From the NCBI GenBank assembly GCA_003345595.1, contig PRDI01000008.1, positions 1 through 17,690 on the forward strand: 17,690 nucleotides of DNA. The letters are read 5' to 3'. Position numbers and translations under genes: made by a program. The notes beneath the pieces are model-generated. The model saw nothing but the letters and a program-made list of their open reading frames with translations, was not told the origin of the DNA and ran no database searches. The DNA comes from Candidatus Thorarchaeota archaeon (GTDB lineage: Archaea; Asgardarchaeota; Thorarchaeia; Thorarchaeales; Thorarchaeaceae). Of the stretch, positions 2,573 through 17,690 are shown piece after piece (position 1 is the stretch's first letter; every line of letters begins with the position of its first letter).

Positions 2573-2762
2573 TGCCTCGTCAGTCTATCTATTCTGTTCC
2601 AGATTTGCCAGTCGAATTAGTGGTATGGTCTGGGTCATCATGGCTATACTTCTGGCCCACTCAGAAACCGACCTAGTCAGGAGATTTTTAAGTTCCCACT
2701 CGAGGAAGTCCAAACTGTCCAGATTCTGGCTAGCTGCCACATACCGCCCTGGAGGCGGAACA

Positions 2763-3698
2763 ATGAATCAGGCGGAAATAAGAGAAACTGCAAGAATGGT
2801 CGAGATGGCAGGTCTCTCCAGTCCGATGCTCAGAGTGTTTCAGGTCAGGAGCGATTATCTTCTCCCATCTACATATGTCATCGAGTCCCCGAGTGCTCTG
2901 AAGATTCTGCTACGACCTTGGATTGTGGGAGGGAAGCTGGCAAGCTATGCACGAAGGAGTACTGCCGAGTTTCTTCGTGTGGCGTACGGAGTTTCCGAGG
3001 AATTGAGGGACTCGCATCTTGGGACTGTAACAGAAGTCATTCCGCTTGCAGGCTCTCTCTACTATGGTGTCGCGGAAGCATTTGAATCAGTCTTTGGAGA
3101 GCCCATCAACCGCTGTTTCATTGGTGCGAAGCGTCAGCTATCACCAACAGGTTGGGTGACCGAGCTTGCCTACGAGAACTTCGAGGCTTTATCGCCTGAG
3201 TCGGTGATCTTGATAGGGGACACTATAGCAACAGGTGGGACTATCGAACGCATCTTGGACGCCACGCTGGCCCGCGGTCCAGATATACGTGCAGTGATTG
3301 TCTATTCCATTGCAGGTGGCCTGATAGGGGCGCACCGTCTGAAACAACTCGCTGAACGCTTGCATATTCCCATCTATCTCTTCTTCTCTAATGCGATATT
3401 CGGTGTCGAGTCGAATGGTACGGACATGCCTTGGCTGCATCCGGGCACCGTGGTTTCCCCTGGAATCAGAGCGAAGGCGGAGAGCACCTATGGCACTGAT
3501 TTGGGACGCCGCTGGTGTTGTGTCTGGGACTGGGGCGACCGAGCCAAGCAACCGCTGAAGCATCTCGAAATGCTGTTGGCACGTTGCGATGAGGAACTGC
3601 ATGCTAACGTGACAGAGAAGACCAAGAACGTCCTTGAGAAGGTAAGACGGGAAACTCAGAATGCTCTTGAGGAATGGAAAAAACCGCTGCAGCTCTGA
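2763..3698 (+). CDS. Type I phosphoribosyltransferase, divergent uracil-PRTase-like
   Basis: PRPP-binding loop VILIGDTIATGGT; C-terminal WDWGDR resembles the UPRT GD(A/F)GDR motif. Start moved from 2625 to ATG 2763 because GGAGG lies at 2751-2755 and TATA-like TTTTTAAG at 2685-2692. Confidence 0.7.
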   Translation: MNQAEIRETARMVEMAGLSSPMLRVFQVRSDYLLPSTYVIESPSALKILLRPWIVGGKLASYARRSTAEFLRVAYGVSEELRDSHLGTVTEVIPLAGSLYYGVAEAFESVFGEPINRCFIGAKRQLSPTGWVTELAYENFEALSPESVILIGDTIATGGTIERILDATLARGPDIRAVIVYSIAGGLIGAHRLKQLAERLHIPIYLFFSNAIFGVESNGTDMPWLHPGTVVSPGIRAKAESTYGTDLGRRWCCVWDWGDRAKQPLKHLEMLLARCDEELHANVTEKTKNVLEKVRRETQNALEEWKKPLQL

Positions 3699-3767: not shown

Positions 3768-4796
3768 ATGGCACTGACTGATGAACAGAGGGAGCGATAC
3801 TCCCGGACTCTGGCTCTCCGCGACTTCGGAGAGAAAGAAATGGTGTCCGTCTTGAGAACCACGGTATCTGTGGTCGGGGCCGGCGGACTGGGCAGCCCGG
3901 CACTTCGTTTCTTGGTGGCCATGGGCTTTGGCAAGGTCCGTATCATAGACCGTGACATAGTGGAGTTGTCCAACATCCAACGACAGACCGTATACAATAC
4001 GAGTGACATCGGCCGACCAAAAGCGGAGGCAGCCGCCTCTAATCTTGCGCTCATGAACCCCGATGTGGAGTTTGAGCCGATCACAGTATCCATAGACATG
4101 AACAACGCCCAAGACCTGTTGAAGGGTTCGGACATCATCCTAGACGGTCTAGATACTGTCCAGTCAAGACGCGCTGTCAACTTCGCAAGTGTCAGACTGA
4201 AGATACCCTACGTGTTTGCGGGCGCAATCGAATACTATGCTAACATCACGACATTCCTGCCGGGGCAGACCGGGTGTCTACAATGCTTGATGGGCGATGT
4301 TCAAGACAACCCTGAGAATACGTGTCAGAGGGTCGGTGTTTCACCAACGCTCTTGCCCATGGCAGCTTCTGTAGAGGTTCAAGAGGCTGTCCTCATAGCA
4401 GTGAGTCGGCATCCTCGTCTGGCAGGACGCCTGATGGCAATAGACATGAACGACTTGGCCTTTGACTTCTTTGACATAGGGCGGGTGGAGGACTGTCCTG
4501 TATGTTCAGCCCCAACAAAGAGAACAGCAGAGAAGCACGATTCTCCATCTGTCACTATGCTCTGTTCGGGCAGCTTCAACATCTCCCCGGCGGGACCCAC
4601 TGCCATTGACACTTCTGCTGTGGCAAGACGTGCGAAACGGAAGTACAAGGCAGTCGAGCGACCGGGGTTTGTGAGAATCGAAACAGACGTCGGTGCACAG
4701 ATTACTATCATGCAGAGTGGAAATGCGATCGTGAAAGGCGTCAGTACAGCAAGCCAAGCTCTTCACTTGTATCAGGAGATGCTGAACGGGTTCTGA
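3768..4796 (+). CDS. ThiF/MoeB/HesA family E1-like adenylyltransferase with C-terminal extension
   Basis: RYSR, GAGGLG nucleotide-binding loop, DRDIVELSNIQRQ, Zn motifs CLQC and CPVC, putative catalytic Cys in NTCQRVG. The ~90-aa C-terminal domain resembles the long (~340 aa) MoeB/ThiF forms. TATA-like TTTAAG at 3729-3734. Confidence 0.93.
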   Translation: MALTDEQRERYSRTLALRDFGEKEMVSVLRTTVSVVGAGGLGSPALRFLVAMGFGKVRIIDRDIVELSNIQRQTVYNTSDIGRPKAEAAASNLALMNPDVEFEPITVSIDMNNAQDLLKGSDIILDGLDTVQSRRAVNFASVRLKIPYVFAGAIEYYANITTFLPGQTGCLQCLMGDVQDNPENTCQRVGVSPTLLPMAASVEVQEAVLIAVSRHPRLAGRLMAIDMNDLAFDFFDIGRVEDCPVCSAPTKRTAEKHDSPSVTMLCSGSFNISPAGPTAIDTSAVARRAKRKYKAVERPGFVRIETDVGAQITIMQSGNAIVKGVSTASQALHLYQEMLNGF

Positions 4797-13911: not shown

Positions 13912-14304
13912 CTACTTGACTGCAACGTCCTTTTCGCTCTTCCAGAGACCGTGGATGTTACAGTAAGAAGTAGCCATGAGAGTTCCTGGTTTCGTTATCT
14001 TGAATGCAAATACTGCGAAGGGTTCAGTGTACAGCGGACCCGTGTTCGGGCCTTGAGTAGACTCTCCGTGTGTGTCGAAGGTGGCATAGCCCACCTCCAT
14101 CGGGAACTTCTCTCCATCAGCCCAGAAGAACAGGTCTAACCACTTTATGTGATGCTCGGTGACATTCGGGTGTGGAATCTGTTTTCCGACAGAAACGGTC
14201 ACCTTCACCACCTCTCCTTTCTTCACAACATCAGGAGCCTCTATCACGGGCACATGCTTTTCACTCTTCCAATCAGCAGTCTGCATCCATGTCTTGTCTG
14301 GCAT
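13912..14304 (-). CDS. sor: Superoxide reductase, 1Fe type (neelaredoxin)
   Basis: EKHVP, HPNVTEHHIKW and YCNIHGLW iron-site motifs; no desulforedoxin domain. Likely start ATG 14304 after GAGGT. Confidence 0.95.
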   Translation of the reverse strand: MPDKTWMQTADWKSEKHVPVIEAPDVVKKGEVVKVTVSVGKQIPHPNVTEHHIKWLDLFFWADGEKFPMEVGYATFDTHGESTQGPNTGPLYTEPFAVFAFKITKPGTLMATSYCNIHGLWKSEKDVAVK

Positions 14305-14419
14305 TCTTCCCAACCTCTATGTCACAATACAGGACATCCGTTGAGGTCTGTCCTCTATATTCACTATGTGCCAGCTGTTAAAACACTTCTCCTATGTTAC
14401 ATAATGGAAGGGCCTTGGA

Positions 14420-15913
14420 TCAGTCAGACAGCCGCTCAAGCTGATTCAGTGTCCACTTCCCGCGTTCTGACAGCTCATAGTATCTTCGGTATCTGCCATC
14501 GAAGGTTCGTTCAGACCGAGTACTAGCAATGAGGCCACTTGCCTTCAGTTCCACAAGGTGTTGGTACACACTCGGGATTCTGAGTCTGACTCCATGGTCC
14601 TCCTGAAGACCCTTCCAGATTTCGTATCCATAAGATTCACCCTTGGCCAGAATGTGTAGTATATGCACCTTGGTCTTTCCCAGATGGGTGGTGAATCGTC
14701 GATCCTCGACCTGACTGAGCAAGTTTTCAAGCTCGGTTCTGCCCTTGACCAGCGTTCTGGCAATCTCAGGGTATTTCAGTCCCATGCCTGTTATGACACA
14801 AACTACGCGGTCAGTCCGGCTTATCTCCTTAGACTCCATGAGTGCCCTCAATGCGGCAATCGACGTTGCTGATGAAGGTTCAGCGAACACTCCCTCTTGT
14901 CGTGCCAGATCACCCAACGCCTTCAGGATGTCCTTGTCGTGTACAGCTATCGCATGGCCCCTCGATTCACGTATGGCATTGAGGGCCATCCGTCCACAGG
15001 AAGGTTTCTTCACACTGATGTCGAGCGAAAGTGTTGACACCGTTGCACATGGGCTGACTTCGTCTGCATTGCTGTCAAAGGCTTCCACGATTGGAGCACA
15101 GCCCTTCGCCTGCACACCCACAAGCTTCGTCTTGTTGGTTTCAAGGAGGCCAACCTGATTGAGTTCGCGTAGTCCTTTCCATATCATTGAAAGATGACCT
15201 CCATTCCCCATCGGGACTATGATCCAGTCTGGTCCGGTCCATTGAAGCTGTTCGCACACCTCATAGACCGTGGTCTTCACACCCTCAAGAAAATGTGGAC
15301 TGGATGGGCTGATGATGCGACTGTGAGATGATTCTTGGTTGGCTCTTGCTTCGGCCTCTTCATGGTCCCTGACCACTTCGACATCCGCCCCATATGCAAG
15401 AATCTGGTAGAACTTCCCGACGTCCACACCCCCTCTTTGTGGAATGAAGACTTTGCTGCTAAGTCCTGCTCTTGCGGCATAGGCGACAAGAGAAGCTGCC
15501 AGATTGCCAGTTGATCCGCAGCACATCGACTTGAACCCTCTCTCCTTTGCGACCGAAACCTCCACTGCGGTTCCCCTGTCGATGAATGCACCGGTAGGAT
15601 TGGTAGTTTCGTCCTTCAGGTACAGCTCCTGCATCCCGGTACTTCTTGCCAGTCCATCACACTTGTGAAGAAAGGTACCACCTTCCCCCAGAGAAACAAC
15701 AGTGTCAAGGTTCACGACTGGGAGAAGCTCAGAGTACTTCCAGATGCCCGGCAACCGCCGCGCAAGCTCAGTGCTTTTGAAACGCCTTCTCAGCTGACTG
15801 AGGTCATAGGTCACATTGAGCACGCCATCGCACACAGCGCAGATAGTGATTCGTTCATCTGACGGGTACTCATGGCCGCACTGAGTGCATTTGAGTGCAG
15901 TAACGAAGGACAT
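14420..15913 (-). CDS. Threonine-synthase-like fold-type II PLP domain lacking the catalytic Lys, fused to a C-terminal PadR-type winged HTH; predicted transcription regulator
   Basis: N-terminal Zn ribbon (CTQC...CAVC), SLGEGGT, NPTGAFIDRG (canonical NPTGSFKDRG), STGN, PMGNGG, EPSSA, TGMGLK. The last ~85 aa (ILHILAKGESYGYEI...SVYQHLVELKASGLI...RRYYELSERGK) match the PadR pattern. Confidence 0.9.
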   Translation of the reverse strand: MSFVTALKCTQCGHEYPSDERITICAVCDGVLNVTYDLSQLRRRFKSTELARRLPGIWKYSELLPVVNLDTVVSLGEGGTFLHKCDGLARSTGMQELYLKDETTNPTGAFIDRGTAVEVSVAKERGFKSMCCGSTGNLAASLVAYAARAGLSSKVFIPQRGGVDVGKFYQILAYGADVEVVRDHEEAEARANQESSHSRIISPSSPHFLEGVKTTVYEVCEQLQWTGPDWIIVPMGNGGHLSMIWKGLRELNQVGLLETNKTKLVGVQAKGCAPIVEAFDSNADEVSPCATVSTLSLDISVKKPSCGRMALNAIRESRGHAIAVHDKDILKALGDLARQEGVFAEPSSATSIAALRALMESKEISRTDRVVCVITGMGLKYPEIARTLVKGRTELENLLSQVEDRRFTTHLGKTKVHILHILAKGESYGYEIWKGLQEDHGVRLRIPSVYQHLVELKASGLIASTRSERTFDGRYRRYYELSERGKWTLNQLERLSD

Positions 15914-15919
15914 AGAATC

Positions 15920-15948
15920 TGCCTATATATAGGCACAGGCTTATATAT
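15920..15948. promoter_or_regulatory. Perfect 16-bp palindrome (candidate operator) next to a TATA box in a divergent promoter
   Basis: TGCCTATATATAGGCA at 15920-15935 is its own reverse complement; TTATATAT at 15941-15948. Confidence 0.7.
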
Positions 15949-16071
15949 CATCCTCCAGCGTGCGCTCGGTGCTGAAGGCACGATGGAGGTTCACTGTCGT
16001 GACATCTGTTCTGACAGTAGCTGCCGACAGGAATCTCGCCTTCGGCAGAACCCTCTTGGTGTTGGTCGGCC

Positions 16072-16680
16072 ATGATGAAGCAATCACGTGCCTTTGGACC
16101 CTACCCGGCGTTTTATGTCGCATTGCTGGCTGTGCTGACCGCGTTGACAACTGTTGCAACACTCATTCTAGCGATTCCATTTCCGACAACACAAGGGTAC
16201 TTCAACTTGGGGGATTCTCTAGTAATGATCAGCGGCTTCCTCCTAGGTCCACTTGGGGGTTTCGTCGCTGGGGGCGTTGGTTCGGCTATGGCCGACCTGA
16301 TTGCGGCGCCAACCTATGCACCCATAACTCTCCTGTCAAAGGGATTAGAAGGAGCACTGGTCGGACTCTTTAGTCGTCGCACTCGAAGGGATACGAAACT
16401 CGGTTGGTGGGACATTCTTGGTCTACTCCTTGGCGCTACTGCCATGTTGACCGGATACCTGTTCGGAGAAACCCTCGTACTCGGCTTCTCTTGGGAGGTG
16501 GCAGTCGTAGAGATGATTTCGATTAACTCAGTGCAGGTAATCAGCGGCGCAATCGTGACAGTGTTAGCGGGGCCTGTCATCAGGGAGTATCTAAGGGGAA
16601 CGACATACTGGCCCGGAGATGAGGGCGTCGGGACCATTGAGAATCTGCAGCATGATGATCAGTCTGTCAACAGTCTTTAG
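16072..16680 (+). CDS. ECF transporter S-component (COG4720; HmpT/PdxU-like)
   Basis: About 6 TM helices; AxxxA motif (LLAVLTAL), IPFPTTQGYFNLGD, LGPLGGFVAGGVGSAMADL, YAPITLLSKGLEGALVG. Substrate is inferred from the family, not shown. Confidence 0.9.
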   Translation: MMKQSRAFGPYPAFYVALLAVLTALTTVATLILAIPFPTTQGYFNLGDSLVMISGFLLGPLGGFVAGGVGSAMADLIAAPTYAPITLLSKGLEGALVGLFSRRTRRDTKLGWWDILGLLLGATAMLTGYLFGETLVLGFSWEVAVVEMISINSVQVISGAIVTVLAGPVIREYLRGTTYWPGDEGVGTIENLQHDDQSVNSL

Positions 16681-16823
16681 TTCATGAATGGCGGAATCCG
16701 AGCTTCTTTTGATGTTGTTAGAAACGAGAGTCGACTGGCCGTCGGAATCTTTTATTTGGACGCACTCAGCAACACTCCTTGGTCCACGGACAATGTCAGT
16801 GTCAACACCAGAAGGTACGCTTG

Positions 16824-17690
16824 ATGATTGATAGAAAGAGGTTCAGGATAGGTCCTGAGAATCTAAGGAAGGTCAACGATTTTCTAGTACGTGAGGACAA
16901 TCCGCTCACGACTGGTCTCCTCGAAGTGATTGACAAGTACGGCGGTGTTGATGAGATCAACAGAAAGGCGCACGAAGCATGCAAACTGGAGAACCTAATT
17001 GCTCAACTTGAAACAAGAAAGTCACCGTTCGTGCGGGATCTAAGATGGTTGGAGAAACAACGTGACGAGAGTGCCTTCATCAGTATTCCAGAATATCGAA
17101 CGAGGATACTAGGTGAGAGAGCAGGGTCAATGGTGTTTGACGACAGCTTTGCCGTGACCCTAGAGATAAGCGCATGCCAGTACTTCCCATGGATAATCGA
17201 GGAAGCGCATCATGCCATTGATGACCGAGATCTGATGCCCGGGCGTTTCATTCGAGTGAGGAACATGAAGGAACAGACTGCAGATGATCAGGTGATCGCC
17301 TTTGCTGCGGCCATGCAAATCGTTGGCTCATCGTATGTTGAGACACTCGACACGAAAGGGACTATGCTTGGACCCGACGGAGCCCCCGCGAATGTTCATC
17401 TTGGTGGTCCTGCGACAATCACGGGCTACTTCGGCGGCGTGGGGATGCCAAACGACTTTCCTCTCAGGTGGGCAGACGAGTATCTTCACTACTACACCAC
17501 CTATGGAGTGAAGCAGGTATTGAATGTGAACTCTGGTAGCATACTTGTCGGCTACATGATGCATAAGCTAGGGATAGACATGGAGTTCAAGATCTCGGTT
17601 TTCACAGGCAATGACAATCCCTTTGCGTGTCTATGGACAATGATGACTGCGAAGCTTTTCAGTCGAAGCGATGGCAGCAGTCCTCTGATC
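16824..17690 (+). CDS. Hypothetical soluble protein, 3'-truncated by the window edge (absent from ORF track)
   Basis: Manual translation gives 289 open codons from ATG 16824 to the window end (MIDRKRFRIGPENLRKVNDFL...LFSRSDGSSPLI); GAAGGT at 16811-16816; TTTATTT at ~16750. Confidence 0.85.
   Translation, partial: MIDRKRFRIGPENLRKVNDFLVREDNPLTTGLLEVIDKYGGVDEINRKAHEACKLENLIAQLETRKSPFVRDLRWLEKQRDESAFISIPEYRTRILGERAGSMVFDDSFAVTLEISACQYFPWIIEEAHHAIDDRDLMPGRFIRVRNMKEQTADDQVIAFAAAMQIVGSSYVETLDTKGTMLGPDGAPANVHLGGPATITGYFGGVGMPNDFPLRWADEYLHYYTTYGVKQVLNVNSGSILVGYMMHKLGIDMEFKISVFTGNDNPFACLWTMMTAKLFSRSDGSSPLI

Follow-up and report, generated by a model that had tools for sequence, protein, structure and literature searches.

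Some archaeal one-component regulators of vitamin genes are built as fusions of a helix-turn-helix (HTH) domain with an enzyme, as in RbkR and in ThiR, the vitamin regulator in which ThiN is fused to an HTH. A comparable design is found in the bacterial PdxR/MocR regulators (GabR, TauR), in which a winged HTH (wHTH) is fused to a sensor that derives from a pyridoxal 5'-phosphate (PLP) enzyme and is no longer enzymatic. PdxR regulons comprise pdxST, pdxK and pdxU, the regulator is divergently encoded and self-regulating, and MocR regulators are absent from Archaea (PMC5320631). Here we describe a candidate archaeal counterpart, encoded in a window that is an entire 17.7-kb contig (C8) of a 2.73-Mb Asgard metagenome-assembled genome (MAG) that is 83% complete (G000). 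Its locus consists of a gene for a 497-amino-acid (aa) protein, in which a threonine synthase (ThrC)-like domain without its catalytic lysine is joined to a PadR-type wHTH, and of a divergent gene for the S-component of an energy-coupling factor (ECF) transporter. From the sequence comparisons below it is very probable that this protein binds the predicted operator between the two genes and controls the neighboring S-component.

The arrangement differs from known systems in several respects. MocR regulators carry an N-terminal GntR wHTH and a fold-type I, aminotransferase-like sensor, whereas here the PadR wHTH is C-terminal and the sensor is of fold type II, the Schiff-base lysine is lost in this protein, and the family is archaeal. 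The protein is a functional analogue of PdxR through convergence, not a homologue or a member of that group. If our interpretation is correct, the convergence is clear: Bacteria combined fold type I with GntR, and Archaea fold type II with PadR, to reach the same targets, pdxST and PdxU. RbkR and ThiR, in contrast, serve other vitamins through other folds and DNA-binding domains, and their enzyme donors come from the metabolism of the same vitamin; the donor here, threonine synthase, uses the cofactor, and the cofactor site itself would be the sensor. Full-text searches of the literature found no description of a ThrC-PadR regulator, of a fold-type II transcription factor of such a kind or of an archaeal B6 regulator, and a major survey of PLP pathways mentions no ThrC-PadR or archaeal B6 regulator (PMC9997740). 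The system would thus fill a gap, as no transcriptional B6 regulator is described for Archaea in the literature searched.

A threonine synthase fold without its lysine, joined to a PadR domain

An earlier note on this DNA, made from the letters alone, had described a PLP-fold protein that lacks its catalytic lysine and is fused to a PadR domain. Profile matches bear this architecture out: Pfam places a PALP domain (PF00291, E 5.8e-65) and a PadR domain (PF03551, E 3.8e-13, 74 of 75 profile positions covered) in the product (Table 1). From the N to the C terminus, the predicted regulator is made up of a 4-Cys zinc ribbon, a Lys-less threonine-synthase-like (fold-type II PLP) sensor, a flexible linker and the PadR wHTH. 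Its closest named homologues are proteins of Thorarchaeota MAGs. It also passes the ThrC profile tests of NCBIfam (PRK08197, 332 bits against a cut-off of 303; TIGR00260, 201 bits against 167). In a HMMER alignment, however, its motif NPTGAFIDRG faces NPTGSFKDRG of Aquifex ThrC (2zsj), which places Ile111 at the position of the Schiff-base lysine. We rejected a filing as threonine synthase (EC 4.2.3.1), since the defining lysine is Ile111 despite the profile matches. A further NCBIfam model of 442 positions, named 'threonine synthase' and spanning the wHTH (PRK05638), scores the regulator at 289 bits against a cut-off of 421, and none of the control genomes passes it, so that it supplied no characterized protein with a name for comparison.

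Table 1. Features of the regulator and S-component locus, in window positions
Feature	Position	Strand	Basis or remark
Gene for the predicted one-component regulator, 497 aa	14420..15913	-	Open reading frame (ORF); Pfam and NCBIfam matches
PALP sensor domain, residues 73-376	14786..15697	-	Pfam; Ile111 codon at 15581-15583
PadR-type wHTH, residues 418-490	14444..14662	-	PF03551; recognition helix ...SVYQHLVEL...
Predicted operator, perfect 16-bp palindrome TGCCTATATATAGGCA with core CCTATATATAGG	15920..15935	.	6 nt upstream of the regulator ATG
TTATATAT box, likely shared TATA box of the divergent promoters	15941..15948	.	Conservation and archaeal promoter geometry
Probable 5' leader of the S-component mRNA	15949..16071	+	Spacer length comparison
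ECF transporter S-component of the PdxU/PdxU2/HmpT family, 202 aa; predicted regulated target	16072..16680	+	PF07155

The 120 best homologues, all annotated as 'threonine synthase', come from Thor-, Loki-, Hod-, Odin- and Sif-archaeal MAGs. As 115 of them have I or L at the lysine position, we read the loss as a family trait and not as an error. The same pattern emerged when 1.84 billion representatives were searched exhaustively with HMMER: proteins of ~460-500 aa that combine ThrC with a wHTH nearly all lack the lysine, having I, L, V, M, T, N, R, S or A instead, and ThrCs of ~400-420 aa without a wHTH retain it. The lysine loss described in the earlier note therefore stands for this protein and for most fusions, but one clade, the Lokiarchaeia-type fusions, retains the residue.

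When the columns of 53 fusions were compared with those of 33 Lys-bearing ThrCs, Lys111 was the sole invariant ThrC column altered in every fusion. About 20 invariant residues are retained (K100, N105, P106, F110, D112, R113, G136, N137, Q170, E210, G211, K213, T214, E218, G236 and G238 of the Gly-rich loop, E345, P346, and T375, G376, G378 and K380 of the motif T375-G376-x-G378-L-K380). Because the cofactor pocket is retained while Lys111 is changed in all 53 fusions, the pocket, judged by these alignments, is under selection and catalysis is not, which is the signature of a sensor. The regulator further has Phe where the PYR motif of Aquifex ThrC has Arg, and F, L, Y or A occurs at this position in at least 82% of the fusions; from the Thermus ThrC structures, we take this Arg to bind the substrate phosphate. 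Within the fusion alignment, C9, C12 and C28 of the zinc ribbon are invariant and C25 nearly so, and in the recognition helix H452 is invariant and Y450, Q451 and L453 nearly invariant. With 50-65% identity across the family, the regulator is under strong purifying selection.

The AlphaFold2 (AF2) model of the regulator has a predicted local distance difference test score (pLDDT) of 92.1 and a predicted template-modeling score (pTM) of 0.81, confidence being low only at linker residues 404-409. Its best folds in the PDB are the ThrCs 2zsj (Aquifex) and 6cgq (Bacillus), both with a template-modeling score (TM) of 0.87, and the two-domain ThrC-PadR architecture was not found among solved structures in the fold comparison. 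ThrC and regulator thus share the fold, 36-38% identity, the 4-Cys N-terminal ribbon and nearly all invariant residues, and they differ in the replacement of Lys111, in the appended PadR domain and in the presence of a separate Lys-bearing ThrC in the genome. In the model, residues 413-496 form three helices, a beta hairpin and a C-terminal helix, and the sequence matches of the PadR domain in the PDB are the regulators 5dym, 5zhc and 6abq. Like PadR, LmrR and Rv3488, the protein has a full-length PadR wHTH match, the C-terminal helix and a predicted palindromic operator beside its own gene; unlike classical PadR proteins, which have ~110-180 aa and no enzyme-like sensor, it carries a 400-aa PLP-fold domain before the wHTH.

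The separate ThrC-like gene has the motif NPTSSFKDRG, with its lysine, and an N-terminal zinc ribbon, so that catalysis is not needed from the fusion. Since this gene is split over contig ends (G000:C87:4-~780, minus strand, and the end of G000:C36), gene callers see fragments and may mistake the fusion for the organism's threonine synthase. We consider the 497-aa protein to be a one-component transcription factor with putative DNA binding, not a threonine synthase. The label 'threonine synthase' is probably wrong for hundreds of proteins in Asgard and related MAGs, a mislabeling that distorts reconstructions of threonine synthesis.

Linkage to the S-component and the operator region

The surroundings of the fusion, ~13 kb, were compared across 60 Asgard genomes of many families. 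Scoring PALP-PadR fusions for linkage to S-components or pdxS/pdxT, as the earlier note had suggested, gave a positive result: the S-component lies within ~1 kb of the fusion in 50 of the 60 genomes, in divergent, same-strand or convergent arrangements, and pdxS-pdxT lie beside the fusion in two of the 10 loci without an S-component (G308, locus L047, divergent; G005, locus L052, in one operon). Outside the window's own family, f1, the pair persists through rearrangement. It is divergent in some loci, on the same strand with the S-component downstream in others (L058, L061), and convergent in L062, L064, L066-L071, L073 and L074. A third fusion linked to pdxST occurs on a metagenome contig (L082), and on another (L080) a Njordarchaeales fusion is divergent from a complete S-EcfA-EcfA'-EcfT operon. 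A further fusion, whose cluster includes a Bathyarchaeota-named member, faces a PF07155 gene in convergent orientation. A regulator beside a B6 synthase or a PdxU-family importer matches the bacterial PdxR regulon (PMC5320631); by this linkage the fusion resembles PdxR in its targets, pdxST and a PdxU-type transporter, and would work like it.

One genome (G370) contains two complete regulator/S-component pairs (C14:52818-54904 and C68:4923-7021), whose regulators are 59% and 62% identical to that of the window. This doubling could reflect duplication, strain mixture or two specificities.

The regulator and the S-component are separated by 158 bp (15914-16071), and this divergent promoter region does contain the perfect palindrome, and is flanked by the divergent ECF S-component gene, that the earlier note had reported (Table 1). 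A perfect palindrome of 16 bp is expected ~0.002 times per 158 bp. The 2.73-Mb assembly contains the 12-bp core of this palindrome, CCTATATATAGG, a single time, where base composition predicts 0.135 occurrences, and the palindrome is therefore not a generic promoter element. Among loci with a fusion identity of at least 49%, 33 of 34 have the motif C[CT]TATATATA[AG]G 8-26 nt upstream of the fusion ATG; the motif is found too in the pdxST locus L047 and in L054, and CTTATATATAAG occurs between pdxS and the fusion on the pdxST contig L082. All Thor-type loci share a conserved (a/c/g)TTATATAT located 6-7 nt beyond the palindrome. Here the TTATATAT box lies 5 nt from the palindrome, its center ~31 nt from the regulator ATG, and archaeal promoter geometry makes it the likely shared TATA box, with its transcription factor B recognition element (BRE). 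The palindrome of the earlier note thus stands as the likely operator, conserved and lost together with the regulator, with the refinement that the neighboring box is likely the TATA element of both promoters.

More distant loci have two or three imperfect copies of the palindrome or everted half-sites, such as TATATAGG-N6-CCTATATA in L080. In the convergent and same-strand loci, related TATA-rich palindrome arrays (ATATAAGTT-N2-AACTTATAT) precede the S-component and not the fusion, so the operator appears to follow the S-component gene and to mark the regulated target. Regions upstream of S-components, 1% of the sequence, account for eight of the 25 matches to the array pattern, a count that is descriptive only, as the pattern was derived from those regions.

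Natural losses of the regulator offer a further comparison. The S-component is kept in 78 of the 86 genomes of family f1, and in 22 of the 23 high-quality ones. We compared 14 syntenic loci of the same family that lack the fusion; they keep the order orf12780, desulfoferrodoxin, [missing fusion], S-component, orf16779. The operator motif is present in none of these 14 loci, which indicates that the palindrome belongs to the regulator, and in L085, L096 and L094 decay has left CCTATGTAGG-like remnants of it. Upstream of the S-component, the segment ggctcaagGTTATAT persists without the regulator, so that its TTATAT box would be the TATA box of the S-component. Since the TATA/BRE part and the S-component are both kept in these relatives, the promoter appears to function without the regulator, which favors repression over activation.

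The position of the palindrome fits this direction on the regulator side, where it sits between the TATA box and the start, by promoter geometry the classical position of an archaeal repressor. On the S-component side it lies directly next to the BRE end of that TATA box, and one bound dimer could, on the same geometry, block both promoters.

The S-component leader was considered as a possible riboswitch and rejected. The distance from operator center to ATG is ~144 nt here and in L016, against ~60 nt in most relatives; the spacer is ~85 nt longer in this genus only and has predicted hairpins. No Rfam match was found in the leader at E up to 1, and its folding z-score of -1.96 makes it only marginally more stable than shuffled sequences. 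For these three reasons, the genus-restricted length, the absence of an Rfam match and the marginal fold, the leader is kept out of the proposed mechanism.

Vitamin B6 supply, proposed mechanism and competing explanations

The S-component matches PF07155 (ECF-ribofla_trS) at E 1.1e-31. This family (COG4720) is that of PdxU and PdxU2/HmpT, two of only three prokaryotic B6 transporters described (PMC9997740). The HmpT/PdxU type named in the earlier note agrees with the structural comparisons, in which the closest solved relative is the Lactobacillus brevis transporter PdxU2/HmpT (PDB 4HZU chain S, 4hzu_S), which binds pyridoxamine (PMC4860826). It is the sole PDB sequence match (E 5.9e-10) and the best fold match of the AF2 model (pLDDT 88; 26% identity, TM 0.82), followed by other S-components, among them RibU at 16% identity. 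We mapped the pocket residues named in PMC4860826 through the 4hzu_S alignment. The PdxU2 residues E41, W76, H84, Y120, N140 and Q143 correspond here to D48, Y82, K90, Y129, N152 and Q155, so that five of six are conserved or conservatively replaced; K90, Y129 and Q155 do not vary among 30 Asgard S-component sequences, and the conservation of N152 there is at least 90%. The two proteins thus share the Pfam family, the six-helix S-component fold and the mapped pocket, and differ in overall identity, in His84 and in that the present protein is archaeal and its B6 substrate predicted.

The genomic context points to a need for such a transporter. PdxS is found in none of the 86 genomes of family f1, including 23 high-quality ones, and PdxJ in none of 21 relatives, while the genome has nine matches to the PLP-enzyme (PALP) family. 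Since PdxS and PdxJ were not found while PALP-family genes and the S-component are kept, the lineage appears, from its gene content, to rely on B6 import, for which this S-component is the only PdxU-type candidate. An EcfA-EcfA'-EcfT module, consisting of CbiQ/EcfT and two ATP-binding cassette ATPases, is encoded at G000:C114. Across the phylum, only 50 of 400 genomes searched have PdxS, which suggests widespread vitamin B6 auxotrophy in the Asgard genomes searched; full-text searches found nothing relevant on Asgard B6 auxotrophy. A whole Thorarchaeia-type family without PLP synthase and, as indicated, dependent on imported B6 bears on proposed syntrophy and on cultivation. Asgard archaea are the closest archaeal relatives of eukaryotes, and B6 dependence is relevant to their proposed lifestyles.

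We consider it likely that the protein is a B6-sensing repressor that acts on its own gene and on the PdxU-like S-component through the operator, a scheme in which we infer the ligand, the DNA binding, the dimerization and the sign. The threonine-synthase-derived domain keeps its PLP pocket, in which the catalytic Schiff base is impossible, and would sense intracellular PLP or a related phosphorylated vitamer. The PadR domain, probably as a dimer, would bind TGCCTATATATAGGCA, between the shared TATA box and the regulator start and on the BRE side of the divergent S-component promoter. With B6 plentiful, the liganded protein would sit on the operator and shut both genes; with B6 scarce, it would leave the DNA and uptake would rise, the S-component capturing external B6 for an EcfAA'T module encoded elsewhere. 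In other Asgard archaea the same regulator would control pdxS-pdxT, the PLP synthase, instead. As to the parts of this scheme, the linkage and the pocket indicate that the signal is probably vitamin B6, whereas for a PLP-dependent repressor as such our confidence is only slightly better than even. With a defined 16-bp operator candidate and a soluble 497-aa protein, the hypothesis lends itself to direct tests in vitro.

Several points weigh against this interpretation. Ligand binding, DNA binding and regulation are all deduced from sequence, and without its Lys the pocket may have a low affinity for PLP or may accept a different molecule. Because the whole neighborhood is syntenic within family f1, the adjacency there is not independent evidence, and the weight falls on rearranged loci from beyond the family. 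The fusion is missing from many f1 genomes. The remaining eight of the 60 fusions have no B6-related neighbor; GINS, MCM, hydrogenase and peptidase genes adjoin them. Upstream of unlinked pdxS in clade-B genomes (G114-G117, G006), where start codons are uncertain, we found no convincing CCTATATA-type site. On the transporter side, His84 of PdxU2 is Lys90 here, and PF07155 also holds S-components assigned to hydroxymethylpyrimidine (HMP) (PMC4860826). Salvage after uptake could be assigned to no kinase: no PF08543 pyridoxal kinase reaches threshold in the genome (21.5 bits), and only two PfkB-family kinases, of no assigned specificity, are present. Finally, the palindrome lies upstream of the S-component BRE/TATA, a position also used by archaeal activators, so that the sign of regulation may be activation instead.

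The last point is the basis of the alternative that survives best, in which the same regulator and operator act in the manner of bacterial PdxR. A site directly upstream of a TATA box is typical of archaeal activators, and the palindrome has this position relative to the TTATATAT box on the S-component side. Apo-PdxR, moreover, acts within one shared intergenic region as an activator of pdxST and a repressor of pdxR (PMC5320631). The alternative is nevertheless unlikely, since the 14 regulator-less relatives retain a promoter that appears functional without an activator, and since the gap between palindrome and TATA box is only 5-6 nt, so that a bound dimer should occlude the BRE.

An amino-acid-related signal, such as O-phosphohomoserine, threonine or a PLP-amino-acid aldimine as in GabR, with an S-component that imports such a metabolite or another one, we consider improbable. 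The origin of the domain from threonine synthase speaks for it, as do the STGN loop and the many substrate-side residues that are partly kept; moreover, the Lys-bearing Lokiarchaeia-type fusion is the only ThrC-family match in four of five genomes, and some fusions may therefore handle ThrC substrates. However, three independent loci have pdxS-pdxT next to the fusion, the S-component is a member of the PdxU/PdxU2 family, Phe replaces the Arg of the PYR motif, and no threonine or homoserine pathway gene is a conserved neighbor of the fusion in the examined loci.

Still less probable is a module for uptake of the thiamine precursor HMP, with a true HmpT as S-component and a dead ThrC domain that senses HMP phosphate or a thiamine-related ligand. 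HmpT was the name first given to members of PF07155, HMP resembles pyridoxine in structure, and in simulations HMP interacted with one conserved pocket residue (PMC4860826). Against this, the linkage is to pdxST and not to thi genes, the leader has no thiamine pyrophosphate riboswitch or other Rfam element, and the PLP-type pocket is kept. The least credible explanation is that there is no regulator at all, only an inactive or atypical enzyme relic with a structural wHTH and a palindrome that is a promoter TATA element: although the palindrome core TATATATA resembles an archaeal TATA box, the core motif occurs once in 2.73 Mb and is lost exactly with the fusion while the neighboring TATA box stays, and the fusion is under strong purifying selection with an invariant recognition helix.

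Evolution of the fusions and neighboring genes

The fusions fall into three groups: A, Thor-type, in which Lys is replaced by I, L, V, M, T or N; B, with the motif NPTNSF[R/S]DRA; and C, Lokiarchaeia-type, in which Lys is kept and which includes the cluster with a Bathyarchaeota-named member. All three have the recognition helix (V/I)YQHLxEL, which suggests that the two fusion blocks share one origin, a matter that the midpoint-rooted tree cannot decide. In that tree K and R forms interleave, which implies repeated loss of the lysine.

The thrC model matches nothing but the Lys-bearing fusion in four of five Lokiarchaeia-type genomes, two of them 100% complete (G149:C10, locus L067; G188; G229; G185). 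This fusion may be a bifunctional enzyme and regulator, or these organisms may be without threonine synthase. We propose RbkR, which is both riboflavin kinase and regulator (PMC8305020), as a parallel to the bifunctional case. More tentatively, the family could be the missing archaeal B6 regulator, sensing through an enzyme cofactor site, with members that span the steps from enzyme to dead sensor and with the lysine lost repeatedly once a separate ThrC had taken over.

Directly downstream of the S-component, an ORF at 16779-17690 (plus strand) runs past the contig end; its full length is 426 aa (L025:7204-8484). The protein shows ~70% identity throughout the Thorarchaeia-type family, a conservation above that of either regulator or transporter, and is kept in regulator-less genomes. 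It has no Pfam, NCBIfam, PDB-sequence or informative ESM-Atlas match. With no informative match and a linkage that does not extend beyond family f1, we rejected it as a candidate salvage enzyme. At the other end of the window, ORFs of 809 and 357 aa (143-2572 and 2625-3698, both plus strand) lie upstream of a ThiF-family (E1-like) gene at 3768-4796; neither ORF matches Pfam, and their NCBIfam scores are marginal at best and far below threshold. Directly downstream of the regulator and in the same orientation lies a gene for a neelaredoxin-type desulfoferrodoxin (superoxide reductase; 13912-14313, minus strand), whose synteny holds across the family, also where the regulator is missing.

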